From an uncultured delta proteobacterium (lineage in GTDB: Bacteria; Myxococcota; Myxococcia; Myxococcales; Myxococcaceae), in assembly GCA_963771175.1 (NCBI GenBank), contig CAVYSY010000052.1:64001-128000 (forward strand): a DNA stretch of 64,000 nucleotides, written 5' to 3'. Of the stretch, positions 3,642 through 53,275 are shown one piece after another; position 1 is the stretch's first letter; each line of letters begins with the position of its first letter. The notes beneath the pieces are model-generated. The model ran no database searches. It saw only the letters and a list, made by a program, of their open reading frames with translations, and was not told the DNA's origin. The translations under genes and the position numbers were made by a program.

Positions 3642-3665
3642 CGCTGCTCCTCCCTCGGGCCGGCG

Positions 3666-4790: not shown

Positions 4791-4810
4791 GTCGCTCCTC
4801 CTCTCGCGCC

Positions 4811-5503: not shown

Positions 5504-5541
5504 GGGTCCTCTCTGGAGGCGAACGTCCTCCCTCCAGGAGA

Positions 5542-5557
5542 AGCACGGCGCCGGCCA
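5542..5557 (-). promoter_or_regulatory. Putative sigma54 promoter for the PRTase-hydrolase/archease-rtcB operon
   Basis: Minus strand TGGCCGGCGCCGTGCT = GG-N10-GC, about 40 bp upstream of the PRTase ATG. Confidence 0.55.
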
Positions 5558-5799
5558 TTGGCTCCCGACGCCCCACCGAGGGCCCGGCCGTTCTCTCGAC
5601 ACGGGGGGTGCGCTCCGATGGGCAGGAGGGCACGAAGAACTCCGACGAAGGGCGGGCGCACGAGGGCGCCGAACCGCTCCCGCTTGTGCGCGGGAAGTCA
5701 ATGGAGCACGCCCCCCCCATCCCACGCCCGGGCGGAATGAGGGATGATGCGGCTCCCCCCGACGCGGCCAGCCCGGCCCGACGGGACACGGAGGGCAGC

Positions 5800-6714
5800 A
5801 TGGACCTGACCGTCTTCAGCGGCACCGCCAACCGTCCGCTCGGCGAGGCGCTCGCTCGCACGCTCGAACGCCCGCTCGGGAAGTGCCACCTCGAGCGCTT
5901 CCCGGATGGCGAGATGCATGTGGAGCTCCAGGAGGACGTGCTCGGTCGGAACGTGTGCCTCATCCAGCCCACCGTGCCGCCCGTGGGAGAGAACCTGCTG
6001 GAGCTGCTGCTGATGGCGGACGCGTGCTGGCGCGGAGGCGCGGCGCGGCTGCTGGCGGTGCTGCCCTACTTCGGCTACGCGCGGCAGGACCGGCGCAAGG
6101 GGATTGGCGAGGCGCTCGGGGGCCGGCTGGTGGCGGACCTGCTGGAGCGCGGACACTTCGACCGACTCATGGCGGTGAACCTGCACACGGCCGCGCTGGA
6201 GGGCTGCTTCAACATCCCGCTGGAGCACCTCGACGCGTGCTCCCTGCTGGTCGACGCCCTGCGCCCCCACGTGGGCCCGGGCTCGGTGGTGGTGTCGCCG
6301 GACCTCGGAGCGGTGAAGCTGGCCGAGCGCTACGCGCGGCACCTCGGGCTGCCGCTGGCCATCGTCCACAAGAGCCGGGTGAGCGGCTCCGAGGTGAACG
6401 TCCAGGGACTGGTGGGCGAGGTGAAGGGACTGCGGCCCATCATCGTGGATGACCTCATCTCCACGGCGGGCACCATCGCGGCCACGGCGGAGACGGTGCT
6501 CAAGGAGGGCTGCGCCGACGACATCACCGTGGTGGCCACCCACGCCCTGCTGGTGGGCCCCGCGGTGGAGCGGCTGGCCCGGGTGCCCATCCGCCGGCTC
6601 CTCTCCACCGACAGCGTGCCGCACCGCACCGAGCTGCCCTTCAAGCACGAGGTGGTGGGCCTCGCCCCCCTGCTCGCCGGCGCCATCCGCCGCATCACCA
6701 GCAAGGGGCGCTGA
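5800..6714 (+). CDS. prs: Ribose-phosphate pyrophosphokinase
   Basis: FSGTAN, RFPDGE, PYFGYARQDR, VVSPDLGAVK, IIVDDLISTAGT, ATHALL motifs. Confidence 0.93.
   Translation: MDLTVFSGTANRPLGEALARTLERPLGKCHLERFPDGEMHVELQEDVLGRNVCLIQPTVPPVGENLLELLLMADACWRGGAARLLAVLPYFGYARQDRRKGIGEALGGRLVADLLERGHFDRLMAVNLHTAALEGCFNIPLEHLDACSLLVDALRPHVGPGSVVVSPDLGAVKLAERYARHLGLPLAIVHKSRVSGSEVNVQGLVGEVKGLRPIIVDDLISTAGTIAATAETVLKEGCADDITVVATHALLVGPAVERLARVPIRRLLSTDSVPHRTELPFKHEVVGLAPLLAGAIRRITSKGR
6543..6596 (+). repeat. 54-bp segment of prs, copy 1 of an imperfect direct repeat
   Basis: 48/54 identical to 7688..7741 by manual alignment. Confidence 0.85.
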
Positions 6715-6721
6715 CGATTCC

Positions 6722-7177
6722 TCAAGGCTCCGCCAGACAGGCCTCCTCGTAACCCCATCGCTCCTGCTCGCGACCTGAATCCAGCACCCGCTTGAGCTCA
6801 TCCCAGGAGACGGACGGAGGCACGTCGATCGCGATCAATCGGGGCAGATGGCTCTGCTCCGTCGAGCATCCCATCTGCTTGAAGAGCGCATGCACCGCGG
6901 GGACGTCGGACGGGTCATGGACGACGACACGAAGCGTACCGTGGCCCGAGGTCTGAACGACATCCTTGAAACGAAAAACTCCCTCCTCTGGGACGGCCGA
7001 GACGACATCCCCCACGGCGATTCCGAGCACGAAGAAGGGAATGTTGTCGATCTTGAAGAGCCCCTCCCCCACCGGGACGGCCCAAAGCGTTTCCGCACTG
7101 GCTGGCGGATAGCCATCCTCATCCTGCTCCAGGTCGAACAGGATTTTCACATGCTCCCCAGTCCTGGGGTCTGACAT
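6722..7177 (-). CDS. DUF4265-like protein, probable immunity protein
   Basis: ETLWA...FKIDNIPFF..GIAVGDVV...SGHGTLRV...IAIDVPP...WGYEEAC pattern; immediately downstream of an HNH gene. Confidence 0.75.
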   Translation of the reverse strand: MSDPRTGEHVKILFDLEQDEDGYPPASAETLWAVPVGEGLFKIDNIPFFVLGIAVGDVVSAVPEEGVFRFKDVVQTSGHGTLRVVVHDPSDVPAVHALFKQMGCSTEQSHLPRLIAIDVPPSVSWDELKRVLDSGREQERWGYEEACLAEP

Positions 7178-8855: not shown

Positions 8856-9551
8856 TCACACGCTCGCCCGCTCCTGCCTACGCTTCGTCATCAAGCTCTC
8901 GTACGCGAGGTACGAGAGCAGCACGAGCCCGGCGAACACCACCGTGGTGCCCACCAGCCACCGGTACGTCAGCGGCTCGCTCACGTGGCCGAGCACCGCC
9001 TCCAGCAGCGAGCGCGGCCGGTTCAGCACGTTCCAACTGTTCCACCGCTCGAAGCGGCCCAGGTAGATGCCGTAGCCGCACAGCACCGACGCGGCCAGCA
9101 CCCCGCCCCACGCCGCCACCCGCCCCCACCGCTCCTCCAGCAGCCGCTTCCACACCTCCAGCGAGAGCAGCCCCAGCAGCCACCCCGTGGCCGCGAAGCT
9201 CGCCAGCATCGCCGCGTCGAACCACATCGGCACGCCCGGCCTCGGCCGCAGGTGGATGAAGTCCGTCAGCAGGTACGGCGCGTTGGGGAACGACAGCAGC
9301 CACGCCACGCCCAGCGGCAGCAGGTTCCACCACCGCCCCCGCCCGCGCGCCTGCAGCAGGCTCGCCAGCAGCGCGAGGCCATACGGCACCCACGCGAGGA
9401 ACAGGTTCCACACCAGGAAGATGAAGCTCACCCTCCCGCTCCACTCCAGCCGCGCCTGGAGCATCACGATGGCCACCACGCTGCTCAGCAGCACCGGCGG
9501 CAACCCATGGTGGTGGAGAAAGGACAGCAGTCGGGAGTGCAGGGTCAGCAT
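8856..9551 (-). CDS. DUF1361-like membrane protein
   Basis: LVWNLFLAWVPY, FPNAPYLLTDFIHL, GIYLGRFERWNSW signature; multiple TM segments. Confidence 0.85.
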   Translation of the reverse strand: MLTLHSRLLSFLHHHGLPPVLLSSVVAIVMLQARLEWSGRVSFIFLVWNLFLAWVPYGLALLASLLQARGRGRWWNLLPLGVAWLLSFPNAPYLLTDFIHLRPRPGVPMWFDAAMLASFAATGWLLGLLSLEVWKRLLEERWGRVAAWGGVLAASVLCGYGIYLGRFERWNSWNVLNRPRSLLEAVLGHVSEPLTYRWLVGTTVVFAGLVLLSYLAYESLMTKRRQERASV

Positions 9552-9751
9552 GGTGTGCACCAGGGTGTGGCCCGAGGGCCGCGGGTGGGGCGGACTCCCC
9601 CGTGCCCCCGCGCCTCGGACTGACACGAAGACACGGCAACCGTGGTCACGGAGCGACAGGGAGACACGTTGGCGGGGCTGGAGGGCATCCACCCGGGCAA
9701 CGAAGCAAGCCCCGGGCCATTTCCCCCTTCCTCCAGGTAATCTCCCCCTCC

Positions 9752-10501
9752 ATGTCCGACACGCTGCTGACGAACCTCGAGGCCGGAGTCCTCACCCTCA
9801 CCTTCAACCGGCCCCAGAAGAAGAACGCCTTCACCGGCGAGATGTACGACGCCGCCGCCCACGCCCTCCTCGACGCCGACTCCAATGACGCGGTGCGTGT
9901 GGTGGTGCTCACCGGCTCGGCCGGCGCCTTCACCGCCGGCAATGACCTCAAGGACTTCCTCGAGAACCCCCCCGCTGGCGAGGACAGCCCCGTCTTCCGC
10001 TTCCTGCGCGCCCTCGCCCACCACTCGCGCCCCGTGGTGGCCGGCGTGGACGGCGTGGCGGTGGGCATCGGCACCACCCTGCTGCTGCACTGTGACTACG
10101 TGGTGGCCTCCGAGCGCGCCCTCTTCAGCATGCCCTTCGTCAACCTGGGCCTCAGCCCCGAGGGCGCCTCCAGCGTGCTGCTGCCCCGCGTGGCCGGCAT
10201 GGCGCTCGCCTCCGAGCTGCTCATGTTCGGCGACCCCTTCGACGCGGCCACCGCCCTGCGCGCCGGCATCATCAACCAGGTGGTGCCCGAGGCCTCCCTC
10301 GCCGAGGTGGTGCAGAAGCGCGCCGCCACGCTCGCCGCCAAGCCCGTGGAGTCCCTGCGCCTCACCAAGCGGCTGCTGCGCGAGCCCCTGCGCGCCACCG
10401 TGGACGACGCCCTCTCCCGCGAGGGCGAGCTCTTCGTCTGGCGGCTCGGCTCGGCCGAGGCCCGCGAGGCCCTCAACGCCTTCCTCGCCAAGAAGAAGTA
10501 G
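9752..10501 (+). CDS. Enoyl-CoA hydratase/isomerase family protein
   Basis: TFNRPQKKNA, FTAGNDL, GVAVGIGTTLLLHCD, PFVNLGLSPE crotonase motifs. Confidence 0.92.
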   Translation: MSDTLLTNLEAGVLTLTFNRPQKKNAFTGEMYDAAAHALLDADSNDAVRVVVLTGSAGAFTAGNDLKDFLENPPAGEDSPVFRFLRALAHHSRPVVAGVDGVAVGIGTTLLLHCDYVVASERALFSMPFVNLGLSPEGASSVLLPRVAGMALASELLMFGDPFDAATALRAGIINQVVPEASLAEVVQKRAATLAAKPVESLRLTKRLLREPLRATVDDALSREGELFVWRLGSAEAREALNAFLAKKK

Positions 10502-17536: not shown

Positions 17537-18895
17537 GTGAGGAAGACGATGGACGCGGCGCTCCTCCTGGACCTCTACGAGCTCACCATGGTGGACGCCT
17601 ACCTCCACGAGGGGCTCCACGAGGAGGCCGCCTTCAGCCTCTTCGCCCGCAAGCTGCCCGCGCACCGCAACTTCCTGCTCGCCTGCGGGCTGGAGCAGGC
17701 CCTCTCGTACCTGGAGACGCTCCGCTTCCCGCCGGAGGCACTCGCCTGGCTGGAGTCGCTGGGGCGCTTCTCGAAGCGGCTGCTGGATTGGCTGGAGCGC
17801 TTCCGCTTCACCGGGGACGTGTACGCCGTGCCCGAGGGCACTCCCGTCTTCCCCGAGGAGCCGCTGCTGGAGGTCGTGGCGCCCCTGCCCGAGGCGCAAC
17901 TGGCGGAGACGTACCTCATCAACCAGGTACACCTGCAGACGGTGGCGGCGTCCAAGGCGGCGCGAGTGGTGGAGGCGGCCCAGGGGCGGCCGGTGGTGGA
18001 CTTCGGGGTGCGGCGGATGCACGGAGTGGACGCGGGCCTGAAGGTGGCGCGCGCGGGCTACATCGCCGGAGTGGCCGCCACCTCCAACCTGCTGGCGGGC
18101 CAGCGCTACGGAATCCCGGTGGCCGGCACCATGGCCCACAGCTACGTGCAGGCCCATGACGACGAGCTCTCCGCGTTCCGCGCCTACGTGCGCCGCTTCC
18201 CGGAGACGACGTTGCTCGTGGACACGTACGACACGCTGGAGGGCGTGCGCAACGTGGTGAGGCTGGCCCGGGAGCTGGGGCCGGACTTCCGGGTGCGCGC
18301 CGTGCGGCTGGACTCGGGAGACCTGGGCGCGCTGGCGCACTCGGCGCGCGCCCTGCTGGACGCGGCGGGACTGGAGCGGGTCCAGATTTTCGCGAGCGGC
18401 GGGCTGGACGAGGACGAAGTGGCGCGACTGATGGCGCGACAGGCTCCCATCGATGCCTTCGGCGTGGGCACGGCGATGGGCGTGTCCGCGGACGCGCCCT
18501 CCCTCGACATGGCCTACAAGCTGGTGGCGTACGCGGGCAGGGGGCGGATGAAGCTGTCCACGGCGAAGGTGCAGCTGCCCGAGCGCAAGCAGGTGTTCCG
18601 CGAGGAGGCGGATGGGGAGGCACGCCGGGACGTGCTGGCCCGCCACGACGAGGTGCTCCCGGGACGTCCGCTGCTGCGGCGGATGATGCACGGAGGGCGG
18701 CGGCTGAAGGGCGCGAGCCCCACACTGGAGGAGCTCCGGACGAACGCGAGGGAGGAGCTGGCACGCCTGCCCTCGCGGGTGCGGGCGCTGCCGCGAGCCG
18801 AGCCCCCCTACCCGGTGGAGGTGAGCCCCACGTTGAGCGAGGCGCGAGACCGGCTCGCGAAGGAGCTGAGCCGGCCCGAGGAGGTGGACCGATGA
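17537..18895 (+). CDS. pncB: Nicotinate phosphoribosyltransferase
   Basis: DLYELTM, DFGVRR, GTMAHSY, LLVDTYDT, VRLDSGD, ASGGLDE, FGVGT, AYKLV. Confidence 0.93.
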   Translation: MRKTMDAALLLDLYELTMVDAYLHEGLHEEAAFSLFARKLPAHRNFLLACGLEQALSYLETLRFPPEALAWLESLGRFSKRLLDWLERFRFTGDVYAVPEGTPVFPEEPLLEVVAPLPEAQLAETYLINQVHLQTVAASKAARVVEAAQGRPVVDFGVRRMHGVDAGLKVARAGYIAGVAATSNLLAGQRYGIPVAGTMAHSYVQAHDDELSAFRAYVRRFPETTLLVDTYDTLEGVRNVVRLARELGPDFRVRAVRLDSGDLGALAHSARALLDAAGLERVQIFASGGLDEDEVARLMARQAPIDAFGVGTAMGVSADAPSLDMAYKLVAYAGRGRMKLSTAKVQLPERKQVFREEADGEARRDVLARHDEVLPGRPLLRRMMHGGRRLKGASPTLEELRTNAREELARLPSRVRALPRAEPPYPVEVSPTLSEARDRLAKELSRPEEVDR

Positions 18896-41605: not shown

Positions 41606-43066
41606 CTAGTGCAGGAGGTCGGAGCCCTCGGGCTGGGCCTCCGGTGGGTGCGCCGCCGCGCGGGACAGGGGCAGGCGCACGCGGAAGGTGGAGCCCACAC
41701 TGGGGCGACTCTCCACCTCGATGCGGCCCCCGTGGGCCTCGACGATGCGCCGGGCCACGGACAGGCCGAGCCCCACGCCCGGGGCCTTCTCGCGGGCCCG
41801 CCCCGAGCGCCGGAAGGGAGTGAAGAGGTTGCGCATCTCCTCGGCCGAGACGCCGATGCCCCGGTCCACCACGGACAGCACCGCCTCGTCCCCCTCGCGG
41901 CGCACAATCACATCCACCCGGCTCCCCGTGGGCGAGTACTTCAACGCGTTGCTCACCAGGTTGTGCAGCACCTGCTCCACGCGCGTGCCATCGCACTTCA
42001 GGAGGACGGGCTCCTCGGGCAGGTCGAGCCGCAGGTCATGCGAGGAGCCTCCCGCCAGGTACAGCTCCGCCACCTCGCTAGCCAGGTCGCGGACGTCATG
42101 CTCCTCCAACTGCAGCTCGAAGCGGCCAGCCTCGATGTGGGTGGAGTCGAGCAGGTCCCCCACCATCCGGTCCAACCGGGCCACCTGGCGGCGCACGAGG
42201 GCCATCGTCTTCTGCATGCGCTCCTCGGTGACGGGGCGGCCGGAGGTGACGAGCGCGGCGGACATCTTCAGGGCGGAGAGGGGGTTGCGCAGGTCATGCG
42301 CCACACCGGCGAGGAAGGTGAGCTGCTCCTCCTGCTGGCGCCCCAGGGAGTTGGCCATCTCGTTGAAGGTGCGGGCTATCTCGCGCAGCTCGGTGGGGCC
42401 CTCCTCGGGAGCACGGGTGCGCTTGCGCCCGCTGCCGAAGCGGTGCATGGCGCGGCTGATGTCGAGCAGGGGACGGAAGACGGAGCGGCGCATCCACAGC
42501 AGCATCACCGTGCCGCCGAGCACCAGGAGCACGGCCACGCCCACACCGCCGATATTGGCGAGGTGATCCCACCGGTCCGCCAGGGACTGGGCGCGGCGGG
42601 CCTCCTCCACGTTGAAGTCGACGAGTCGTCCCAGGGCCTGGAGGGCCGCCTCCAGGGGAGAACCCAGCGCCAGTGCCGACTTCCGCTCCTCCGGCAGGTT
42701 CCGCACCTCTTCACGCTTGAGCAGGTAGAAGGAGATGGCCTGCTCGGCCTCGGCGAGCAGCGCCCGCTCCTGCTCCGATGGCGCCTGGCGCCGGGCCTCG
42801 GCGAGGTGGGCGCGGATGGCGGCCTCCGTCTCGGCGAGCGAGCGGTCGGTATCGGAGGGCAGGGTCCGCTCGGAGGCGGACAACCGGACGAGGGTGAGCA
42901 GGTCGACCTGGAGTGCCTCGGCGAGCCGGACGCCCTCCACCGAATTACCGAGGCTCTCGGTGGTGTGGTGCAGGTAGCTCGTCAGGATGATGAGCGAGGC
43001 AGCGCCCGCAAGGGAGAGTGCCCCCAGCGCAACGAGGGTCATGGTCATGATCCGCTTGAGGCTCAT
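41606..43066 (-). CDS. HAMP-domain sensor histidine kinase
   Basis: Two TM segments, HAMP (FNEMA), AHDLRNPL H-box, NLVSNALKY, DRGIG, GVGLGL. Confidence 0.92.
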   Translation of the reverse strand: MSLKRIMTMTLVALGALSLAGAASLIILTSYLHHTTESLGNSVEGVRLAEALQVDLLTLVRLSASERTLPSDTDRSLAETEAAIRAHLAEARRQAPSEQERALLAEAEQAISFYLLKREEVRNLPEERKSALALGSPLEAALQALGRLVDFNVEEARRAQSLADRWDHLANIGGVGVAVLLVLGGTVMLLWMRRSVFRPLLDISRAMHRFGSGRKRTRAPEEGPTELREIARTFNEMANSLGRQQEEQLTFLAGVAHDLRNPLSALKMSAALVTSGRPVTEERMQKTMALVRRQVARLDRMVGDLLDSTHIEAGRFELQLEEHDVRDLASEVAELYLAGGSSHDLRLDLPEEPVLLKCDGTRVEQVLHNLVSNALKYSPTGSRVDVIVRREGDEAVLSVVDRGIGVSAEEMRNLFTPFRRSGRAREKAPGVGLGLSVARRIVEAHGGRIEVESRPSVGSTFRVRLPLSRAAAHPPEAQPEGSDLLH

Positions 43067-43336
43067 GCCGCCTCCGGGTGGAAGGAGCACAGACGGCGCG
43101 GAGCGCGGCGGGGGATGCAGGGGTCCACGCGAGTCCTCCCGGAGTCGAGGGCGCGGGCCTCCGCGCCATACCTTCCAAACAGGAAGATGTGTCCGGGAGA
43201 AGCCAGTCGGCGCGGCCCGGTCGGAGAGCATCCGACGAGGCGGGGGTGGAGGAAGAGAGAGGCCCCCCACTCCCGCGGTTGCTCACGTTACGGGCTCACG
43301 GGCTAGATGCGCGTGTCGGAGCCCTTGGAGGTGTGC

Positions 43337-44149
43337 TCAGGCGCCGAATCCCCCGAGGGCGGTGCGGCTGAAGCTGGCGGCGCCCTGGCTGACGCGGACG
43401 GCGGACTGGCTGAAGACCTGGAAGGCCTTGCGGATGTCCTGGGCGCTCTGGCCGGGAGTGAGGATCCACTTGTCCTCGATGCCCATCTCGCGGAAGACCT
43501 TGCGGAAGTCGGTGCTGCCATCGTCGATGCCCATGGCGGCGACGATGTGATTCTCGGCGCGGCGCAGGTCATTCACGAGCGAGGCGACGTCCCGGGCGCG
43601 AGCGTTCTGCGAGTGGCAGTCGGCCCCATCGGTGATGAGGAGGGTGACGGTGCGAGCGGAGACGCCGTTGCGGGTGAACTCCTGGGCCTTGGCGAGCACG
43701 GTGCCGAGCAGGACGACGGCCTGGTCATAGAGGGGCGTGCCCTTGTCGGGGTCGTAGTTCTTCGCGTGCATGCGGACGACGTCCTCGAGGGGCCGGAAGG
43801 GGTTGAGGACGAAGCCGTTGAGGTAGCGGGTGTGGAAGAGGATGCCGTCCTTCTGCTGGCTGGAGAGGAGGGCATCGAGGACGAGGTTGTGGCCGTCGCA
43901 GACGGTGCGGGCGTGACCGGAGTGCTGGATGGAGCCGGAGTCATCGGGCATGACGGTGACGAGGACGACCTCGCTGGCCTGGACGTCATCGACGCTGATG
44001 CCGAGGCCGGCCTGGATCTGCGCGCCGAGGTCCACGACGGTGAGGGCCTGAAGGGCCTGGGGGCTGAGGACGCCCTCGGAGTGAGCGGCCTGGAAGAGCT
44101 GGGAGACATTGGCGCTGCCGCTGTTGCCATTGCTGGACTGGGAGCTCAT
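43337..44149 (-). CDS. vWA (MIDAS) domain protein, TerY-like
   Basis: PDDSGSI (DxSxS), GTPLYD, LLITDG motifs. Confidence 0.75.
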   Translation of the reverse strand: MSSQSSNGNSGSANVSQLFQAAHSEGVLSPQALQALTVVDLGAQIQAGLGISVDDVQASEVVLVTVMPDDSGSIQHSGHARTVCDGHNLVLDALLSSQQKDGILFHTRYLNGFVLNPFRPLEDVVRMHAKNYDPDKGTPLYDQAVVLLGTVLAKAQEFTRNGVSARTVTLLITDGADCHSQNARARDVASLVNDLRRAENHIVAAMGIDDGSTDFRKVFREMGIEDKWILTPGQSAQDIRKAFQVFSQSAVRVSQGAASFSRTALGGFGA

Positions 44150-44186
44150 CTGCGACTCCTTTCAAGAGAGAGGGGTGTGACGCCCG

Positions 44187-45257
44187 TTACGCGATGCGCA
44201 GGTCGGGCCAGGCGGCGAGCGGGTCGGTGGACTTCACGAGGTGCATGCCGGCATCGGCGAAGCGCTTGAGAGCGGACTCGGCCTGAGGGGTGAAGTCAGC
44301 GGCGAACCCGCCCTTGCCATCGGGGACGGTGACGGCGGACATGCAGTCGGTGAGCAGGTACACCTTGCGAGCGAGCGCGGCGTCCTGGGCGAGAATCTCC
44401 CCGAGCAGGTCATCGATGGAGCTCTTCACGCAGTGGCTGGCGGCCTGACCGGCGATGACGACGGCATCGGCGGTGAGGAGCGTCTTGAGGAACTGGGTAT
44501 TGCGCTGGGCGAGCGGCTGGCCGTCATGGCGAGTGAGGACCTCCGGGCGCAGGACGGAGTAGTTCTCGGTGAGGGGGTTGCCGCCCTTGACCTCGACCCA
44601 GGACTGAGCGCCGCGGGCGAACGAGTGGAACAGGCGGGCCTCCTGCACGACACCGGCGATGGCGTGCCCGTCGCCGCCGAGGAGGCAGTGAGGCGGCCAC
44701 AGGTAGAGCGTGTACTTGCCGGCGCGCTCGAGCTCCTCGCAGTAGTACTTCACCTGCTTGAGGAGCCAGGGGTAGTTGCCGCCGCAGAGCCACCTGGCGA
44801 CAGCGGGGTTGGGGCGCACCTGGCCGCGTTCAATCTGCTCGCGAGTGATTTCGCGGTAGGCGGTGAGGGGCTGGTCGTTCTGGTCGACCCAGAAGGACGG
44901 GAAGAAGATCTGGTAGGCGAAGTGGGTGTCCAACGTGGTGGTGACGTTGGTGAGGGCGCCGAGGTTCTTGTAGATGAACTCGGCGATGCGGCGGCTGTCG
45001 TCGATGGCGCCGCGACCGCTGCGACCGGCGACGTAGAGCGAGCCCTCGGGGAAGCAGAAGTCCTTCTGCACGTCGATGAGCAGCAGGTGGAGGTTGAAGG
45101 AGTCAGTGGCGGCGGCGGTGACGCCGTGGGCGCCGCGCCAGGACTGGGCCTCGGCCTGGAGACTCATGGCGTTGGGGCCGTAGGCATACGAGGCGGCATT
45201 GGCGGGCTTGTAGAACGACGGAAGCGGCAGTTCCTTCAGCTTCGACTGCGTCTTCAT
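44187..45257 (-). CDS. Long nicotinamidase/isochorismatase family protein
   Basis: LLIDVQKDFC, GSLYV, TLDTH, WPPHC, VKG, AGQAASHCVKSS (Asp-Lys-Cys triad plus metal ligands). Confidence 0.85.
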   Translation of the reverse strand: MKTQSKLKELPLPSFYKPANAASYAYGPNAMSLQAEAQSWRGAHGVTAAATDSFNLHLLLIDVQKDFCFPEGSLYVAGRSGRGAIDDSRRIAEFIYKNLGALTNVTTTLDTHFAYQIFFPSFWVDQNDQPLTAYREITREQIERGQVRPNPAVARWLCGGNYPWLLKQVKYYCEELERAGKYTLYLWPPHCLLGGDGHAIAGVVQEARLFHSFARGAQSWVEVKGGNPLTENYSVLRPEVLTRHDGQPLAQRNTQFLKTLLTADAVVIAGQAASHCVKSSIDDLLGEILAQDAALARKVYLLTDCMSAVTVPDGKGGFAADFTPQAESALKRFADAGMHLVKSTDPLAAWPDLRIA

Positions 45258-45268
45258 GTGCATCCCCC

Positions 45269-45316
45269 TTAGTGTCTCGACAACAACAACATAGTGTCCA
45301 ATCAACACCATGTCAA
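45269..45316 (-). promoter_or_regulatory. Sigma70-like promoter with two NrtR-type boxes upstream of the nicotinamidase
   Basis: TTGACA-17-TATGTT on the minus strand; boxes TTAGTGTCTCGACAACAACAA (45269..45289) and ATAGTGTCCAATCAACACCAT (45291..45311). Confidence 0.75.
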
Positions 45317-45357
45317 GGCACGTTGGGTTCGGAGGTCCGTGGCGTCAAGAAGCAGAA

Positions 45358-45389
45358 ACCCCGGGGCCTCACATCGAGGCACCCGGGGT
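45358..45389 (-). terminator. Putative intrinsic terminator
   Basis: GC-rich imperfect hairpin followed by TTCT on the minus strand, between the TA pair and the nicotinamidase promoter; short U tract. Confidence 0.45.
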
Positions 45390-45424
45390 GGGAAGCAGGA
45401 AGGGCTTCTGGGCGCGGTCTTGAA

Positions 45425-45451
45425 AAACCTGTCCGACAGTCGGACAGGTTT
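45425..45451. repeat. 27-bp perfect palindrome, REP-like interspersed repeat copy 2
   Basis: Identical to 16818..16844. Confidence 0.85.
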
Positions 45452-45550
45452 CTGAAAAGCGCGCCCGGGAGGTGGGGGTCTGAAACGACTTACTTTAGAG
45501 AGCCTGGCGGGGAACTCACGGACGACGAGCTCCGGAGCGCCCCTGGGCGC

Positions 45551-45889
45551 CTACGTTCCTCGCAGCAGCCGCGCCAGTAGGACGCTCTCCAGGTCCCTAC
45601 GTCCGTCCAGCACGGCCACCACGAAGACCCGGTCAGCCCCTATGCGGTAGAGGATGCGCCAGGGACGAACGATGAGTTCCCGATAGAGGCGGATATCGGA
45701 CCGCGCGAGCTCGGGCACCACGCGACCCCGGCGCGGCATCGTCTCCAGCCGTTGCGCAGCCTGCTCCAGCCGCTCCAAGACACGTGAAGCCGCACCCGGG
45801 TTCTCGCGCTCGATGAAGTCCACTAATTCGGAGAGGTCGGTGAGCGCCACCTCCGCCCACTCGACCTTGAAGCGTCTCGCCACACTCAC
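45551..45889 (-). CDS. RelE/ParE family toxin
   Basis: VEWAEVALTDL, GRVVPEL, RELIVRPWRILYRI, VLDGRRDL. Confidence 0.88.
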   Translation of the reverse strand: MSVARRFKVEWAEVALTDLSELVDFIERENPGAASRVLERLEQAAQRLETMPRRGRVVPELARSDIRLYRELIVRPWRILYRIGADRVFVVAVLDGRRDLESVLLARLLRGT

Positions 45890-46164
45890 TCCTTGATGGC
45901 GAGCCTCCGCCGAACACGGGCGAACGCTTCCGCTTGGGGAACGGTACGGCCCGCCTGGATGTCGGCTTCGCCCTGGGCGGTGAGCTTCAGGAGCAGTGTG
46001 GCATCACGAAGGGCCTCATAGGTGGCCACATCGAGGACGACCGCCTGAGCTTCCCCATGCTGGGTGATGACGACCGGCCGGCGAGAGCGCTTCACCTCGC
46101 GCAACAACTCGGCAGCGCGCGTCTTCATGTACGACACCGGCTTGATGTCCTCGGTCAGCTTCAC
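45886..46164 (-). CDS. Phd/YefM family antitoxin
   Basis: DIKPVSYMK, RPVVITQHGEAQAVV, GEADIQAGR; overlaps the toxin start. Confidence 0.88.
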   Translation of the reverse strand: MKLTEDIKPVSYMKTRAAELLREVKRSRRPVVITQHGEAQAVVLDVATYEALRDATLLLKLTAQGEADIQAGRTVPQAEAFARVRRRLAIKE

Positions 46165-46293
46165 GCCCCACTCCTCTCCAGGTCCAGACAAGGTACCAAC
46201 TTCAGCCCCGCTCGGCACGCACACCACGGAAGCCGGTCTCCTGGCAGGTATCCTAGAGTCCAAGGATCAGGGCAGGAACCACCTGTCCTGGGC

Positions 46294-48162
46294 TCACGTC
46301 ATCCGCAGAGCGGTGACGTCCTGGCGGCGCACGACGGTCAGTCCGTTGCGAGTGAGGAAGAGGCGGCTGTCGGCGTCGACGAAGGGCTCGGTGTCGGGGA
46401 ACTCGCGGACGACGGCGAGCTGCCCCTGGCGCAGCTCCACCCGGACCAGGCCCGCGTCCGTGGCGGCGAAGAGCGCCTCCCCCGCGGCGCACTTGCCCCT
46501 CAGTGAGCCGAGCCACGAGCCGTCCCCGGCCTCCGTCTTCGCACTGGCCTTCACCGCGCCATCCGCGCCCACCACCACGCAGTGATGCACCGTGCGACCC
46601 CCCGTCTCCTCGGCGAGGAAGAGCCAGCAACTCGGCCCGTCGAACACGGCCTCCGCGTCCACCAGTCGGCCCGAGGGCCACGGCAGCGCCAGTCCATCCT
46701 TGAGTCCCGGGCGCTCGGCATCGAAGACGAAGGCCCCGCGCAGCGAGCCCGCGCGGTGGAAACCGAGCCCGAAGCGAGGGCCCACGAAGAGGCGCGTCTG
46801 TCCGGCGAGCACCTCGCCCATGCGCTCGGGGCCGAGAGTACCGTCCCGCCACAGCGCACCGGCGTGGGCCCAGTAGCGGTGGCGCGCGTTGGCGGCGAAG
46901 GCGGGGCGTTGGTCCGGAGCATCCACGCCGAGCCGCTCGGGGCGCTGGCCCGAGGCGAGCACGGCGAACTCCCCGCCCTTCCCCACCAGCGTGGTGGCGC
47001 CCTGGAGGTCCCAGTGCAGCGCGGGGTCCATCGCCCCCTGGAGCACGGCCGAGCCATCCTCGCGCCGGTACGCCCCATCCGAGTGGAAGAGCCAGCGCAG
47101 GGTGCCGTCCTCGACGCGGGCGTGGAGGATGACGCCCTCGGTGGTGAAGAGGCGGGTGGCCACCACCTGGCCGCGCACGGTGGTGACAGGCGTGGTGGTC
47201 ATCGTCGCGCTGGGGCGGCACGTGGGGCACGAGGCCCGCGCGTGCTCCACGCCGCACGAGGGGCACACGGAGAAGCGCAGCGAGTCCAGCAGCGGGAGCG
47301 GGAAGCCACCCCGGGCATCCTCGACGAACACCCGGTGCAGACAGTGCAGCAGGTCATCCGGCAGCACGCCGAAGGGCGTTGCGGGCTTGGGGTATTGGAC
47401 GTCCGGGTGGAAGACGGTGAGGCGCTGGAGGACGCGAGCGGTGGGCGTGGCCTTGGGCGAGGGAGGCGTGGGGCGGTGGATGCCGCCATAGGGCCCCACG
47501 CACAGGAGGCTCTGCATCAGCGCGACGGCGAAGGCATACCAGTCGCTATCCCGCGAGGCCGGGCGCGAGGGCATGAGGCCCTGGCTCGCTCCGCCCAGGC
47601 GCAGCGGGTCGAGGAACTTCTCGGTGAAGACGCTGGCGAGGTAGGGCCCGAACTGGAAGCTGTCCGCGTCGATGAGCCAGGCGTCGTTGCCGGTGACGAG
47701 GATGTTCAGGTCATTGAAGTCGCCCACCACCACCCCGCACGAGTGCAGCGCGGAGAGCGTACGGTGCAGGCCCCGGAAGAGCTCGGCGACGCGGGAGGAC
47801 GGCACACCGGCGCGGCGGAAGGCGGGCTCCCCGAAGCGGCGCAAGGGCTCGGCGCCTTCGAGCTTGCGCATGGCGTAGCCGAGCACCGTCTTCCCCTTCT
47901 TGTCGGTGGCGAGCGTCTGGGGCGAGACGACGCGCGCGGGCAGTGTCTTCGGGAAGGCGGGCAGCTTGAGCTGGTGCTCGGCGATGCGGGCGCGGGCCGC
48001 GGCCTGCTCGTCGGGGAGGTTGCCGTAGTCGGGGTGCTCGGGGGGCTTGAAGAGCTTGAGGACCCGCCCGTCGCCGAGGTCGAAGACGTCGGCCTCGCCG
48101 CCCTTGCCGAGCGCCTGGGTGGGGTCCACCCGGAGCTTCTTCCCTTCGAGATAGACGTCCAT
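46294..48162 (-). CDS. YegI-like Ser/Thr kinase with Zn ribbon and beta-rich C-terminal domain
   Basis: LGKGGEADV, VLKLF, VVVGDFNDLNILV, LIDADSFQ, DWYAFAV, CPSC...H...CPTC. Confidence 0.85.
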   Translation of the reverse strand: MDVYLEGKKLRVDPTQALGKGGEADVFDLGDGRVLKLFKPPEHPDYGNLPDEQAAARARIAEHQLKLPAFPKTLPARVVSPQTLATDKKGKTVLGYAMRKLEGAEPLRRFGEPAFRRAGVPSSRVAELFRGLHRTLSALHSCGVVVGDFNDLNILVTGNDAWLIDADSFQFGPYLASVFTEKFLDPLRLGGASQGLMPSRPASRDSDWYAFAVALMQSLLCVGPYGGIHRPTPPSPKATPTARVLQRLTVFHPDVQYPKPATPFGVLPDDLLHCLHRVFVEDARGGFPLPLLDSLRFSVCPSCGVEHARASCPTCRPSATMTTTPVTTVRGQVVATRLFTTEGVILHARVEDGTLRWLFHSDGAYRREDGSAVLQGAMDPALHWDLQGATTLVGKGGEFAVLASGQRPERLGVDAPDQRPAFAANARHRYWAHAGALWRDGTLGPERMGEVLAGQTRLFVGPRFGLGFHRAGSLRGAFVFDAERPGLKDGLALPWPSGRLVDAEAVFDGPSCWLFLAEETGGRTVHHCVVVGADGAVKASAKTEAGDGSWLGSLRGKCAAGEALFAATDAGLVRVELRQGQLAVVREFPDTEPFVDADSRLFLTRNGLTVVRRQDVTALRMT

Positions 48163-48166
48163 GGTG

Positions 48167-48973
48167 TCAGGCCCTCCCCTGCCGACGGCGGAGGACGACG
48201 AGGGTGGTGTCGTCGGAGAGCAGCCCGGGCACGCGCTCGAGGCGCCGGGCCAGGAAGTCGGCGCGGACGGCCTCGCGGTTGAGGAGCGAGAGGCGGCGGC
48301 GCAGCACGTCCGGGTTGCGGAAGTAGCGGTCGTCGGACCAGAACTGGGAGAGCGGGCCCACGGGCTCGTTACTCTCGGGGACACGGGCCTCGGCGAGCCC
48401 CGCGAGGTCCGCGGCCCCATCCGTGCCGAGCAGCAGCGAGTCCACCTCGGCGGTGGGCCGGAGGGCGTTGGTCTTCAGGGCGACGGCGCCCGGCTTCAGC
48501 AGCCCATAGGAGAGGTAGGGCGGCGCGTTCCCGGGGAAGGGCCCGAGCCGCTGGACGTCGCCATTGAGGGCCCAGAGCCCATCCCCCGCCGAGAAGACGA
48601 GGCAGTGCTCCGGGGTGACGACCGCGCCGACGATGGTGAAGAGGAGCGCCTCGCCGATGGCCCGCTCGCCCAGCTCCCCGGAGATGGCCTGCAGGAAGCA
48701 GAGCACGTCCGCGCCCAGGCGCTGGAGGAACTCGGGCGAGTCGACGGGCACTCCCTGGCCCAGCAGGGAGAGCGAGCCCTCCACGACGCGCCGGGCCCCG
48801 AGCTGCGCGCCCAGCTCGCTCTGGGCGCCACTGCCGCACCCGTCCGTGACGACGGCGGCCAGGCCGTGCTCGGTGGCACGAGCCCAGAAGGCATCCTGGT
48901 TGTTGCGTCCGGCACGGGCGTGCTCCCGGCCCAGGACGGTGGCGGCGGCGAGCTCGAAGGGCAGCGAGGACAT
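48167..48973 (-). CDS. PP2C-like (PphC/YegK type) protein phosphatase
   Basis: GREH...NNQDA, VVTDGCGSG, AGDG, LGTDG, SDDTT. Confidence 0.88.
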   Translation of the reverse strand: MSSLPFELAAATVLGREHARAGRNNQDAFWARATEHGLAAVVTDGCGSGAQSELGAQLGARRVVEGSLSLLGQGVPVDSPEFLQRLGADVLCFLQAISGELGERAIGEALLFTIVGAVVTPEHCLVFSAGDGLWALNGDVQRLGPFPGNAPPYLSYGLLKPGAVALKTNALRPTAEVDSLLLGTDGAADLAGLAEARVPESNEPVGPLSQFWSDDRYFRNPDVLRRRLSLLNREAVRADFLARRLERVPGLLSDDTTLVVLRRRQGRA

Positions 48974-49001
48974 GGCTCTCCTCTCGGGTGGCCCTGCATA
49001 C

Positions 49002-49049
49002 TTCGTGTCTACAGGACACAGGCTTAGTGTCCAAAAAACACAAAGTCAA
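49002..49049 (-). promoter_or_regulatory. Promoter with two NrtR-type boxes upstream of PP2C-kinase
   Basis: Boxes TTCGTGTCTACAGGACACAGG (49002..49022) and TTAGTGTCCAAAAAACACAAA (49024..49044); TTGACT-17-TAAGCC on the minus strand. Confidence 0.72.
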
Positions 49050-49090
49050 GCCGGGCGCCAGCCGTGCCTCGCCGACCGTCGGGTCGGGGA

Positions 49091-49780
49091 CTACAGCTCG
49101 AAGTTGAAGCCGGCCTTCTCGAGCTGCTTGTACTTCTTGTGGTCGAACCGGTAGAGGCGCGCGGCGCGGTGGGAGACGTCCTGCTCCACCTCGTCCAGCT
49201 CCTCGAGCAGGTCCATGGAGAGGATCTTCTTGCGGAAGTTCCGCTTGTCGAGCTCGCGCTCGAGGAGCTTCTCGTAGAGGCGCTGGAGCTGGGTGAGGGT
49301 GAACTTGGGGGGGAGCAGCTCGAAGCCGATGGGCTGGTAGCGGACCTTGCCCTTGAGCCGCTGGAGGGCGGTGGCGAGGATGTCCGCGTGGTCGAAGGCC
49401 AGCTTGGGAGTGTCCCAGACGGAGAACCAGGCGGCCTCCTTCGCATCGGTGGCGGCCTGGACGCGGTGGTCCGTCAGCTTCACCAGGGCGAAGTAGGCCA
49501 CGGTGATGACGCGGCCGCGAGGGTCTCGCCCCGGGTCGCCGAAGGTGTAGAGCTGCTCCAGGAGGTTGGGGCGGACGCCGGCCTCCTCCTGGAGCTCGCG
49601 GCGCGCGGCGTCTTCCAGTGACTCGTCCATGCGCACGAAGCCGCCGGGCAAGGCCCACCGGCCCTGGAAGGGCTCCACGCCGCGCTTGATGAGCAGCACC
49701 TTCAGGTCCTCTTCATCCAGACCGAACACCACACAGTCCACCGTCAACGCGGGACGCGGGTACTCGTAGGTGTAGCTCAC
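49091..49780 (-). CDS. nrtR: NrtR family regulator (Nudix + winged HTH)
   Basis: TVDCVVF, WALPGGF...[16 protein letters not shown]udix box, [32 protein letters not shown]...[14 protein letters not shown]. Confidence 0.92.
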
Positions 49781-49813
49781 GGGAGGGACCTTTCGTGTTG
49801 TCGTTCCAGAGCC

Positions 49814-49842
49814 CACATAGTGTCAGGAAGACACGAAATCAA
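49814..49842 (-). promoter_or_regulatory. nrtR promoter with an autoregulatory NrtR-type box
   Basis: ATAGTGTCAGGAAGACACGAA (49817..49837) in the spacer of TTGATT-17-TATGTG. Confidence 0.75.
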
Positions 49843-50861
49843 GCCTTCCGGGCACGGCGGAAGGACTCGGGGCTCATGCCCCACCAGCGCTTGAAGGCGC
49901 GATGGAAGGTGGCGGGCTCGCCGTAGCCCAGCAGGAAGGAGACCTCCGCGATGGACATCCGGCGCCGCAGGTAGTCCTCGGACAGCTCGCGGCGCACGGC
50001 CTCCAGGATGCCCGCGTAGCTCTGCCCCTCCTCGGCGAGATGCCGCTGCAGCGTGCGCTGGCTCAGGTGCAGCGCCCGCGCCACCGCCTGGAAGGAGAAG
50101 TCCCCTCCCGGCAGCGTGCGCCGCACCTGCTGCCGCACCCGCTCGGCCATGCTGGCGGCCACCGGCAGCTTCGCGAGCGCGCGCTGTGCCTGCTGCTCGA
50201 ACATGGCGCTCAACAGCGCATCCGCGTGGGCGAAGGGCCGCTCCGCGTCCTCCGTGGAGAACTCGATGTCGCTGTGGGGCGCGCCGAAGACGAGCGGGCA
50301 GCCGAAGAGGGCCTCGTGCGCTCGGGTGTCCGAGGGCGCGGGGTGAACGAAGCGCACCTGGAGCGGCTTCACGTCCGCCCCGGTCAGGAAGCGCGTCCCC
50401 TGGGCGAGCTGGGCGAGGGCGAGCTCCACATGGTGCCGGTGGGCCGGCCGCCAGGGGCCCACGGGAGTGAAGCGCATGCGCACCCCGTGCTCCGTCTCCT
50501 CCACCCGAAAGCGCTCGCCGTCGCCCCAGACGCGCTGGTAGCGGCACCCGCGCACCAGGGACTCCTTCAGGTTCGCGCTCGTGAGGATGACGAGTGAGGC
50601 GGCATCGTCCGGATCCACCACGGCCATGCGCGCCAGGTGCAGGCCCAGGTTGTCGTCCCCCGTCACCTGCACCGCCCGCTCCACGAGGGAGTCCAGCACG
50701 CGGTAGGGGATGCGCAGCTCGGGGTCGTCGAGGTCCCCCAGGCGCAGGCCCACCTCGCGGCAGAGCTCCTCGACGGGCAGGCCGTGCTCGGCCGCGATAT
50801 TCAGCGCCTGACGGGCCAGCCGGGCGGAGAGGGCCGCGGACTGAGGAGGAGAGGACGGCAT
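49839..50861 (-). CDS. AraC family transcriptional regulator
   Basis: C-terminal SQRTLQRHL...IAEVSFLLGY.EPATFHRAFKRW. Confidence 0.92.
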   Translation of the reverse strand: MPSSPPQSAALSARLARQALNIAAEHGLPVEELCREVGLRLGDLDDPELRIPYRVLDSLVERAVQVTGDDNLGLHLARMAVVDPDDAASLVILTSANLKESLVRGCRYQRVWGDGERFRVEETEHGVRMRFTPVGPWRPAHRHHVELALAQLAQGTRFLTGADVKPLQVRFVHPAPSDTRAHEALFGCPLVFGAPHSDIEFSTEDAERPFAHADALLSAMFEQQAQRALAKLPVAASMAERVRQQVRRTLPGGDFSFQAVARALHLSQRTLQRHLAEEGQSYAGILEAVRRELSEDYLRRRMSIAEVSFLLGYGEPATFHRAFKRWWGMSPESFRRARKA

Positions 50862-51806: not shown

Positions 51807-52814
51807 TCACGCGAAGATGCGCCCGAGCTGCCGCCAGTCCACGAGCTGCACGGACTCCTGGGCCAGCTCGAACTCGATGGAGCGCCGCATGCCCATGGCA
51901 TCGCCGGCCAGCTGGAAGGGCACCTCGCGGTCGAAGTCCATGCGCACGCGCTCGACGAAGAAGTCGTGCATCTTCGGCAGCGGGTGGTGGCCGCGCCACA
52001 GCTTGAACATGTTGCGCGTGGCCTCCAGCACGCCGGCGCCGTAGACGCGCACCGAGAGCCGGCCGGGCACCGCCTGGGCGAAGGGGAAGGCCTTGAAGCC
52101 GAAGCCCCACTCGGGCGTGGTGGCCGCCCCGGCGACTCCGGCGGGGCCCTCGTAGAGGAGCGCGCCGGGGCCCCCGTGCGGCACGGGCAGGAGGGAGCCG
52201 CGCGCGTCGATGGTCAGCGCCTGCCCCCCGAGGTTGTACACCTTCACCTGCGGGTTGCCGGAGCCGAACATGTGCCGGGGGACGGCGCCGGTGAACAGGG
52301 CGCCCAGGTACCCGCGCAGGCCGGCGTTCGCCTCGCGCAGGGGTCCGGGCGGGAACCGGGCGAGGTAGTTCTTGAAGTCTTGAATCGTCTCCGCGTCCCA
52401 GCCGGTGCCAGCGAAGGGAGCCACCCGGTTCTCCACCCGCACGAGGGAGAAGGGGCGCAGGGGCGGCAGGCGCTCACCGCAGGCGGCGATCTGCCGCAGG
52501 GCTTCCGAGGGCTTCGGTGCCCCGGTGACGCGCGCCCAGGCATTTCCCGTGCCCAGCGGCAGCACCCCGATGGCGGGCAGGGACAGCCCCTGCTCGCGCA
52601 GCTCGTTGAGCAGCCCGGTGATGGTGCCATCCCCTCCGCCGGCCAGCAGCAGCGTGGGGGGATTGGGTCGGAGCTGCTCGGTAATCCAGGTCCGCGCCTC
52701 CTCCAGGGAGCGAGTGAGGGCCAGGCGGGCCCGGGGGAAGGAGCGCTGCACCATGCCGCCGATCCTCTCGGAGCCGCGGCGTGCACGCAGGTTGACCATC
52801 ACGGCGATGTTCAT
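51807..52814 (-). CDS. Diacylglycerol/lipid kinase family protein
   Basis: VMVN, AGGGDGT, LPLGTGNAWA, GTGWDA, FQLAGD. Confidence 0.85.
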   Translation of the reverse strand: MNIAVMVNLRARRGSERIGGMVQRSFPRARLALTRSLEEARTWITEQLRPNPPTLLLAGGGDGTITGLLNELREQGLSLPAIGVLPLGTGNAWARVTGAPKPSEALRQIAACGERLPPLRPFSLVRVENRVAPFAGTGWDAETIQDFKNYLARFPPGPLREANAGLRGYLGALFTGAVPRHMFGSGNPQVKVYNLGGQALTIDARGSLLPVPHGGPGALLYEGPAGVAGAATTPEWGFGFKAFPFAQAVPGRLSVRVYGAGVLEATRNMFKLWRGHHPLPKMHDFFVERVRMDFDREVPFQLAGDAMGMRRSIEFELAQESVQLVDWRQLGRIFA

Positions 52815-53244
52815 GGCGGTTGCACTCTCCACGAGCCATGTCACGGCTTTGTCATGGCGCCGGCCCCTGGGCGTCACGTTCCGGTGGCGGACACATGAGG
52901 TGAGCCCCTCCTCACCATCCGACGTGAGCGGTGATCGCTCCTCCCGTTGGCCAAGATGAGGATGACGCACGGCGGCGCACGGGCGGCACGAGTCGGTCCC
53001 CCGCTGGGCGGGCGGGCGGGTGACCGGAGAGGCCGGGACCCGGGACGGGGCGTCCATGAGCGGGACGGAGCCCCCCGAGCCGAGGCGACGGCGGCGGAGC
53101 GGTGGGGGAGGAAGGCACCGTGATGGGTAGGGAGCCGAGCACCCGCCCAAGGCCCTGAAAAGAGGCGCCTTTTCAAGCCCGGTGGATGGGTTGTGGGCAG
53201 GGCGCGGCGGCTGGTATCTCCGGGGACGCGCGCCCGGCCACCGA

Positions 53245-53260
53245 CGGAACGGCACGTGCA
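53245..53260 (+). promoter_or_regulatory. Possible sigma54 promoter
   Basis: CGGAACGGCACGTGCA = GG-N10-GC, but only 15 bp from the ATG. Confidence 0.3.
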
Positions 53261-53275
53261 ATCCCGCCCCACATC

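Follow-up and report, generated by a model that had tools for sequence, protein, structure and literature searches.

Modules of the TerY-P type, represented in Escherichia coli by yegL-pphC-yegI, bring together a vWA protein, a PP2C phosphatase and a kinase with a zinc ribbon. The same three kinds of protein are encoded, along with an NrtR-type repressor and a nicotinamidase-like hydrolase, in the locus described here, which occupies positions 43,337 to 49,842 of a 64,000-nucleotide stretch (hereafter, the window; positions 64,001 to 128,000 of contig CAVYSY010000052.1, assembly GCA_963771175.1) from an uncultured delta proteobacterium assigned to the Myxococcaceae. As for pphC-yegI in E. coli B, the PP2C gene lies directly upstream of the kinase gene, yet the order of the triad is changed, with the nicotinamidase gene interposed (PP2C-kinase-[nicotinamidase]-vWA). 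PphC has been reported to dephosphorylate YegI (bioRxiv 10.1101/303594). While YegI was described with a two-pass membrane segment (10.1101/819920) and anti-phage TerY-P versions with an OB fold (PMC11090510), the kinase from the window carries a predicted cytosolic beta-propeller instead. Control by NrtR operators and linkage to a nicotinamidase also set the locus apart from the known triads.

NrtR regulons, as presented in PMC2330246, have in common with this locus an autoregulated repressor with Nudix and winged-helix domains, operators of the GT-N7-AC type and a nicotinamidase as target; kinase, phosphatase and vWA targets, in contrast, do not figure in Table 1 of that paper, and the nicotinamidase found here is of an approximately 350-aa form. 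A further resemblance is to the systems centered on ADP-ribosylglycohydrolase (ARG), which combine Nudix-helix-turn-helix regulators with vWA proteins and were predicted to counter viral ADP-ribosylation (PMC9503650). In both, one operon joins a phosphatase and a stand-alone vWA protein to a Nudix-type negative regulator whose presumed ligand is ADP-ribose; Macro or NADAR genes are sometimes attached, and five cyanobacterial relatives of the present locus do contain ARG. However, the phosphatases of the ARG-centered systems are of the rhodanese, calcineurin, HD or HAD kinds, whereas in the window a PP2C is paired with a kinase and no ARG was detected with Pfam. Moreover, the conserved enzyme is here a nicotinamidase, and neither this term nor PncA occurs in PMC9503650 (0 occurrences). 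Regarding short PncA (PDB 3pl1), the Asp/Lys/Cys residues are aligned or conserved, as is the DxH...H metal site, but the similarity is marginal (E 0.047), the hydrolase from the window is about 170 residues longer, and the long form is always followed by a vWA gene.

The components thus belong to known kinds, namely NrtR regulons, TerY-P triads and nicotinamidases, while the fixed combination, the propeller kinase under NrtR and the pairing of a long-form nicotinamidase with a vWA protein appear undescribed. No description of the gene set was found in full-text literature searches, which covered neither subscription papers, nor the 2012 TerY-P paper, nor the 2008 NrtR supplement; this agrees with the original prediction, made from the sequence of the window, that the system was not known as characterized. 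By their SEED role names, the published NrtR targets nrtX and nrtY are probably a Band-7 and a PpnK-like protein, and the idea that the nicotinamidase-vWA pair represents nrtX-nrtY was dropped, given that those roles differ; a search for further papers with these names in that sense returned none.

A conserved module and its operators

The minus-strand gene run that contains the locus was picked out by third-position G+C in a window with an overall G+C of ~71%, whose closest protein relatives are from Archangium, Cystobacter and other Myxococcota. The six gene classes that had been predicted as co-oriented (nrtR, PP2C, kinase, a toxin-antitoxin (TA) pair, nicotinamidase and vWA) were all confirmed on that strand, in the following arrangement (ORF, open reading frame):

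41606-43270, minus strand: HAMP histidine kinase (Pfam)
43337-44149, minus strand: vWA protein, 270 aa (no Pfam name; AlphaFold model)
44187-45257 (ORF to 45311), minus strand: nicotinamidase-like hydrolase, 356 aa (weak isochorismatase match)
45272-45316, minus strand: predicted hydrolase-vWA promoter, TTGACA-17-TATGTT (promoter scan)
45410-45466, minus strand: strong terminator-like hairpin downstream of the TA genes (minimum free energy -39.6 kcal/mol)
45551-45889, minus strand: ParE/RelE-fold toxin (ParE_toxin, E 4.3e-19)
45886-46263, minus strand: Phd/YefM antitoxin (PhdYeFM_antitox, E 5e-15)
46294-48162 (708-aa ORF to 48420), minus strand: YegI-like kinase, 622 aa (no Pfam assignment; hhalign versus YegI)
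48167-48973, minus strand: PP2C Ser/Thr phosphatase, 268 aa (PP2C_2, Pfam)
49027-49041 and 49005-49019, no strand: tandem NrtR-type operators at PP2C (exact GTGT-N7-ACAC)
49091-49816, minus strand: nrtR (NUDIX and NrtR_WHD)
49820-49834, no strand: NrtR-type operator at nrtR (exact GTGT-N7-ACAC)
49839-50861, minus strand: AraC regulator (Pfam)
51807-53261, minus strand: DAGK-like kinase (Pfam)

In order to find relatives, 185,579 species genomes (one per species) were scanned, which yielded 420 loci encoding a kinase relative, of which the best 80 were analyzed; gene presence was assessed by tblastn with the proteins from the window and counted only where the contig reached far enough. PP2C was present in 75/75 loci, the hydrolase together with the vWA protein in 62/66, and nrtR in 65/70, so that the co-occurrence of the five genes in other genomes, anticipated by the original prediction, was found; together they make up a conserved module, to which the TA pair does not belong. 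Among the 65 nrtR genes, 59 were co-oriented with the module and 6, all cyanobacterial, were divergent. According to their labels, which for the bins are unverified, the loci came from Archangiaceae, Myxococcaceae, Sorangium and Polyangia, Cyanobacteria, metagenome-assembled genomes (MAGs) of the candidate phyla radiation, Gemmatimonadota, Acidobacteriota, Entotheonellaceae and one bin labeled Woesearchaeota. Identity across phyla was 44-57% for the kinase, 45-85% for the hydrolase and 58-70% for the vWA protein, for which the alignment that shows its conserved residues gave 58-84%.

The sharing of operators that had been proposed was also clear. Exact GTGT-N7-ACAC palindromes, which fit the published NrtR core (GT-N7-AC) and occur at the promoter of nrtR itself, were found at 4 sites in the 64 kb of the window, versus 0.41 expected, and at least 4 were obtained in 0/100 shuffles. 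A fifth site with one mismatch (45272-45286) is located 22 bp from the exact site at 45294-45308, and all five operator-type sites are within this locus. The sites lie in predicted promoters: the nrtR operator sits in the spacer between the -35 and -10 boxes (TTGATT...TATGTG); the two PP2C operators, spaced 22 bp, overlap the PP2C promoter; and at the hydrolase gene the exact operator sits in the TTGACA-17-TATGTT spacer, with the one-mismatch operator just downstream. NrtR motifs were published as 21-bp palindromes that have a GT-N7-AC core and overlap promoters, and the binding of NrtR to DNA was suppressed by ADP-ribose in vitro (PMC2330246).

This pattern was conserved across phyla. In the 80 loci, 224 exact sites were counted versus ~12.6 expected from base composition, and 217/224 of them were within -260 to +20 of the start of nrtR, PP2C or the nicotinamidase gene. 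At least one site preceded PP2C in 64/74 loci, as a pair in 58/74, with pairs ranging from Myxococcota to Cyanobacteria, candidate phyla radiation and Acidobacteriota, and at least one site preceded nrtR in 62/65. A pair before the hydrolase gene was found in 17/65 loci, all of them Archangiaceae-like; in the remaining groups a single operator pair precedes all four genes, which adjoin one another. The window also holds a NAPRTase-family gene (17537-18895, possibly pncB) and prs (5608-6714), at 25-38 kb from the locus.

Properties of the encoded proteins

The regulator has the architecture of its family, with NUDIX (PF00293, E 2.8e-24) and the winged helix NrtR_WHD (PF21906, E 1.1e-29), and by sequence it would be classed as a member of the NrtR family rather than as the curated equivalog. 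The longest ORF begins at GTG 49816, although homologue starts suggest a GTG nearer 49780. By eye, its Nudix box is intact with respect to the consensus (GX5EX7REUXEEXG).

The start of the hydrolase was placed at 45257 (356 aa) because the MKTQ start is conserved. The predicted ~350-aa nicotinamidase was found as a 356-aa long-form nicotinamidase-like ORF adjoining the vWA gene. A partial phmmer alignment to PncA from Mycobacterium tuberculosis (3pl1, with the E-value given above) was obtained, which places the Asp region on D8 of 3pl1, and WPPHC is matched by the same motif in 3pl1 and 3r2j. D62, K224 and the cysteine of S-H-C276-V were invariant in 16 sequences from ~7 phylum-level groups, as were D110-x-H112 and W187-P-x-H190. 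By comparison with PncA structures, D62/K224/C276 would be the nicotinamidase triad, and D110/H112/H190 the metal site that holds the pyridine nitrogen; nicotinamide is the putative substrate. Homologues are named 'nicotinamidase' in public sources and some carry PF00857, and look-alikes from the ESM Atlas are labeled 'nicotinamidase family'. Compared with short PncA, the protein is longer by ~55 aa at its N-terminus, and another ~75 aa are inserted between its DxH and WPxH motifs. In a Gemmatimonadota MAG (L055, 11968-13029), one in-frame stop interrupts the nicotinamidase-like ORF, owing either to loss of the gene's function (a pseudogene) or to faulty assembly. Relatives of the long form with 30-34% identity are also encoded in three uncultured phage records of 462-595 kb (LR756511.1, LR745208.1 and LR756500.1), in which no vWA relative was detected; these may serve NAD+ (nicotinamide adenine dinucleotide) salvage by the phage.

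The 270-aa protein encoded next to the hydrolase had no match in Pfam (permissive scan included), NCBIfam, PADLOC or PDB sequences. Its AlphaFold model (pLDDT 83, pTM 0.85) retrieved vWA domains on top from the PDB, with 138 matches at E<=0.001, and the residues of the metal ion-dependent adhesion site (MIDAS) were invariant (DDSGS, T138 and D174). Together with a weak similarity to E. coli YegL (BLASTP E 2e-4 over 62 residues), the model indicates a stand-alone TerY/YegL-like vWA protein with an intact MIDAS. An uncontrolled complex prediction for nicotinamidase and vWA protein (alignments A3 and A2) gave a score of 0.00 (mark 0.32), which speaks neither for binding nor against it.

The phosphatase was assigned to PP2C_2 (E 3.1e-15, 56.7 bits versus a cut-off of 24) and resembles E. 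coli PphC weakly (BLASTP E 0.009). The kinase gene starts 4 nt after the PP2C stop; its product was defined as 622 aa (46294-48162) because all 15 aligned homologues begin at MDVYLEG, a start internal to the 708-aa ORF. In agreement with the motifs that had been read from the sequence (GDxNxxN, IDxDSFQ and CxxC..H..CxxC), the stretches GKGGEAD, GDFNDLN and IDADSFQF, as well as the zinc ribbon C300-x2-C303...H307...C312-x2-C315, were invariant in 16 sequences. The proposed likeness to YegI was recovered by hhalign (probability 98.2%, E 4.5e-14) over residues 15-322, which cover the kinase and the ribbon, while a PDB sequence search with the kinase profile gave only marginal kinase matches. Based on the three comparisons with E. 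coli proteins, the assignment of the triad to the yegL-pphC-yegI type holds, as a distant relative. The AlphaFold model of the kinase (pLDDT 80) comprises a kinase fold (1-295), a zinc ribbon (~297-316) and a confidently predicted all-beta domain (327-621). Fold matches in the PDB were the LRRK2 kinase-WD40, BamB, Kelch and WD40 propellers, and PknB, and the C-terminal domain is accordingly modeled as a cytosolic beta-propeller.

Junction insertions and neighboring genes

The TA pair, which the original prediction had bracketed within the system, is not part of it. Phd and ParE were both above their Pfam cut-offs (PF02604 and PF05016, respectively), overlap by 4 nt (probable Phd start, GTG 46164) and lie in the window between the kinase gene and the hydrolase promoter, but they were found in only 1/80 loci (L003) and were rejected as a component, being an insertion. 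The hairpin that follows them (z-score -7.8; equally stable structures in 0/200 shuffles) separates a PP2C-kinase-TA unit from a nicotinamidase-vWA unit.

The site of this insertion is an integration hotspot in the Archangiaceae-like loci. Of those with both genes, 10/18 had a kinase-hydrolase junction of more than 400 bp, whereas in the other groups the hydrolase gene was at most 400 bp from the end of the kinase gene in 20/20 and 23/24 loci. The inserts were 0.4-5.7 kb long, with a lower G+C (0.59-0.66), and the junctions include 45258-46293 in the window and 11867-16770 in L002. The latter carries, co-oriented, a ThsB-type TIR gene (PADLOC E 6.4e-40), MazG_C and a 5-hmdU-kinase-like gene, and L016 carries, also co-oriented, AriA-like and AriB-like genes (PARIS-like) and a PD-T4-6-like kinase. 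Further cargo included a TIR protein and a CdiA_C-domain protein (L011), TPR/NACHT-like proteins (L007 and L049), a Tox-PAAR-like protein (L009) and a PLD-like protein (L017). In four cases, the window included, the cargo is co-oriented directly behind the kinase gene and may thus be under NrtR control.

Outside the junction, accessory genes point to NAD/ADP-ribose metabolism. pncB directly follows the vWA gene in L054; L057 has ARG, Nudix and pncB genes downstream and a second isochorismatase upstream; in L075, nadA-nadC-radical SAM-nadB directly precede PP2C; L051 has prs and a fragment of nadE upstream; and NADAR follows the vWA gene in L080. The ARG gene, inside the operon in 5/80 relatives, all cyanobacterial (L050, L053, L061, L072 and L073), is located between PP2C and the kinase gene, as in L050 at 9213-9986 (PF03747, E 7.7e-41).

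In L050 and L061, a Uma2 nuclease-like gene lies between the hydrolase and vWA genes. Also in L050, genes for ParA-like, ParB-like and tyrosine-integrase proteins (2447-7159) adjoin the module, which suggests that a mobile island carries this copy. In plasmid and phage collections no close copy was found, the vWA protein having no match there and the kinase only distant YegI-like matches.

A related arrangement without kinase or PP2C was found on plasmid 2, a megaplasmid, of Variovorax sp. WDL1 (L082, 4094-8767). There, an NrtR gene is divergent from a gene for a nicotinamidase-like hydrolase 32% identical to that of the window, which is followed by a gene for a vWA-like protein (hhalign probability 74%, E 2.9e-5), with two GTTAGT-N11-ACTAAC palindromes in the intergenic region. 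Deoxyribosyltransferase-like and NAD kinase genes are found downstream, and Macro and Nudix genes on the nrtR side. Since both kinase and PP2C are missing at this locus, hydrolase-vWA under NrtR is the more basic unit, to which the kinase and PP2C were added.

The module holds a fixed syntenic position, with the DAGK gene on its upstream side, in 45/49 Myxococcaceae or Archangiaceae-like loci; the exceptions are L005 and three short contigs. The AraC gene, which in the window stands between the DAGK-like gene and nrtR and ends with a stop codon that overlaps the nrtR -35 box, had a relative at the same position in 4/80 loci only (L004, L006, L008 and L009), and it therefore looks like another local insertion. 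Finally, L023, titled Comamonas sp. KCTC 72670, encodes a kinase 72% identical to that of the window and is fully syntenic with Myxococcus and Pyxidicoccus, including the DAGK-like neighbor; its organism label looks wrong, or the assembly contaminated.

Proposed circuit and rival explanations

With about as much confidence as doubt, we read the locus as a horizontally spread, conserved response operon to NAD breakdown, NrtR-controlled and derepressed by ADP-ribose, with deamidation of nicotinamide as its output, controlled or accompanied by a TerY-P-type switch. At rest, NrtR would occupy GTGT-N7-ACAC in the spacer or over the transcription start of the nrtR, PP2C-kinase and nicotinamidase-vWA promoters, blocking RNA polymerase. 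Cleavage of NAD+ by ADP-ribosyltransferases, sirtuins, TIR/SIR2-type NADases or incoming NADase toxins would raise free ADP-ribose, the putative effector, which would bind the Nudix domain and take NrtR off the DNA. The metal-dependent long-form nicotinamidase would then be made, converting nicotinamide to nicotinate for Preiss-Handler salvage and also clearing nicotinamide, a product inhibitor of NAD-consuming enzymes. The vWA protein, PP2C and YegI-like kinase of the switch would be made as well, with the beta-propeller as a likely sensor or docking surface, and by reversible Ser/Thr phosphorylation they would set the activity or partners of their presumed target, the vWA protein, the nicotinamidase or both.

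Several observations weigh against this reading, whose basis is in silico throughout. The hydrolase matched the isochorismatase family with E 3.5e-4 and 21.2 bits (Pfam cut-off 27) and the NCBIfam PncA equivalog with E 3.7e-5 and 23.6 bits (cut-off 174), and with its family profile nothing in the PDB reached E<=0.01. The regulator scored 182.3 bits against the NCBIfam equivalog for the ADP-ribose-responsive repressor NrtR, below the cut-off of 400, and some members of the family sense other ligands, such as arabinose in BtAraR (PMC4666351). An adjacent hydrolase-vWA pair was missing in 4/66 loci (L012, L029, L044 and L079), and a nearby nrtR in 5/70 (L005, L055, L072, L075 and L079). No GTGT-N7-ACAC, even with one mismatch allowed, was found near the NAPRTase-family gene or prs of the window, and the regulon is thus not simply 'all NAD salvage'. 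In addition, a role in conflict is left open both by the defense genes (ThsB-TIR, AriA/AriB-like and TIR) that insert in the operon in Archangiaceae-like loci and by the anti-phage activity of other TerY-P-like modules cited in PMC11090510.

Such a role would be central if the operon itself were anti-phage or anti-toxin immunity, in which ADP-ribose or ADP-ribosylated protein derived from infection or intoxication induces a TerY-P effector switch, bringing either the cell or the invader to arrest, and in which the nicotinamidase may deepen NAD+ starvation of the phage or restore the host afterwards. We consider this unlikely, though it keeps some weight. TerY-P-like triads have been reported as stand-alone anti-phage systems (Gao 2020, cited in PMC11090510); the ADP-ribose-erasing ARG, NADAR and Macro proteins that accompany the module resemble the predicted ARG-centered systems (PMC9503650); an integrase and ParA/ParB adjoin it in L050; and the ThsB-TIR (E 6.4e-40), AriA/AriB-like and TIR cargo is hosted in Archangiaceae-like loci. 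The distribution is patchy as well (420 relatives in 185,579 species genomes, over many phyla), and such a spread at high identity implies horizontal transfer. However, the module is syntenic, core in Myxococcaceae and highly conserved, which is atypical of fast-evolving defense genes, it has no close copy in the plasmid or phage collections, its linked genes are largely biosynthetic (pncB, nadABC and prs), and no nuclease, pore or other obvious effector was seen among its proteins. The PADLOC check that had been suggested was unconvincing for all seven proteins: the best match was a generic Nudix, and the core proteins gave at most marginal E-values (for the kinase, MkoA with E 0.017 and PD-T4-6 with E 0.036; for PP2C, E 0.063; none for the vWA protein). 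As for the original description of a candidate ADP-ribose-sensing stress/defense system, defense is something we infer and no more, because the conserved accessory context is one of NAD biosynthesis, salvage and ADP-ribose removal, and the sole hint of conflict in the loci themselves is the defense cargo inserted in the Archangiaceae-like ones.

The locus could also be two independent units that share a regulator, that is, a pncA-type salvage unit under NrtR and a generic TerY-P triad with targets elsewhere, metal and envelope stress being examples. pncA is often controlled by NrtR (Table 1 of PMC2330246 gives nrtR-#pncA-pncB and the like), TerY-P triads join systems as unrelated as Ter, CoCoNuT and a GAP1-N2 GTPase (cf. 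PMC11090510), the Archangiaceae-like halves have separate promoters and tolerate inserts of 0.4-5.7 kb between them, and the Variovorax nicotinamidase-vWA pair does without kinase and PP2C. This explanation is slightly less likely still. Outside the Archangiaceae-like loci the four genes share one operator pair and are contiguous, with the nicotinamidase gene at most 400 bp from the end of the kinase gene in 43/45 loci, and at least 7 phylum-level groups keep the association in the face of horizontal transfer; furthermore, since the vWA gene always follows the nicotinamidase gene and not the kinase gene, the triad is physically interleaved with the enzyme. Very improbable, in our view, is that the hydrolase is no nicotinamidase but an enzyme for a different amide or for a substrate linked to protein or nucleotide, with NrtR sensing another ligand in a different pathway. 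The sub-threshold nicotinamidase and isochorismatase matches, the ~55-aa extension and ~75-aa insertion absent from short PncA, and the recruitment of NrtR-family regulators to other pathways (PMC2330246) would fit it, but the Asp/Lys/Cys triad and metal ligands (roles as in PncA structures) are all invariant, linkage to pncB, which encodes a nicotinate-using enzyme, recurs, and the Nudix box of the NrtR from the window is intact.

A bolder extension, which we regard as unlikely, is that the operon constitutes an ADP-ribose-gated 'NAD+ damage' circuit of bacterial immunity, in which NADases (the cell's own TIR/SIR2 proteins, or those of phages and competitor toxins) release ADP-ribose, NrtR leaves the DNA, and both the switch and nicotinamide recycling are turned on, with the Archangiaceae transcript as a docking site for defense cargo. 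The ThsB-TIR and PARIS-like genes of Archangiaceae-like loci are co-oriented directly behind the kinase gene; if such a circuit were real, NAD+-consuming defense genes would be wired in a feedback loop with a sensor of their own product.

TerY-P/YegI-type triads are widespread and, to our knowledge, neither input, output nor substrate is known for any of them. The response operon to NAD breakdown that we favor ties such a triad to a defined enzyme and to a regulator from a family of known effector, and so offers concrete assays for the role of the phospho-switch. With it, the NrtR regulon would reach beyond metabolic genes to a signaling module, and a nicotinamidase of long form, always accompanied by a vWA partner, would be defined. 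Should the conflict reading be true, the operon would link NAD+-depleting immunity and toxins to a dedicated circuit for recovery and decision, and the defense-gene hotspot internal to the operon is a second, independent lead.

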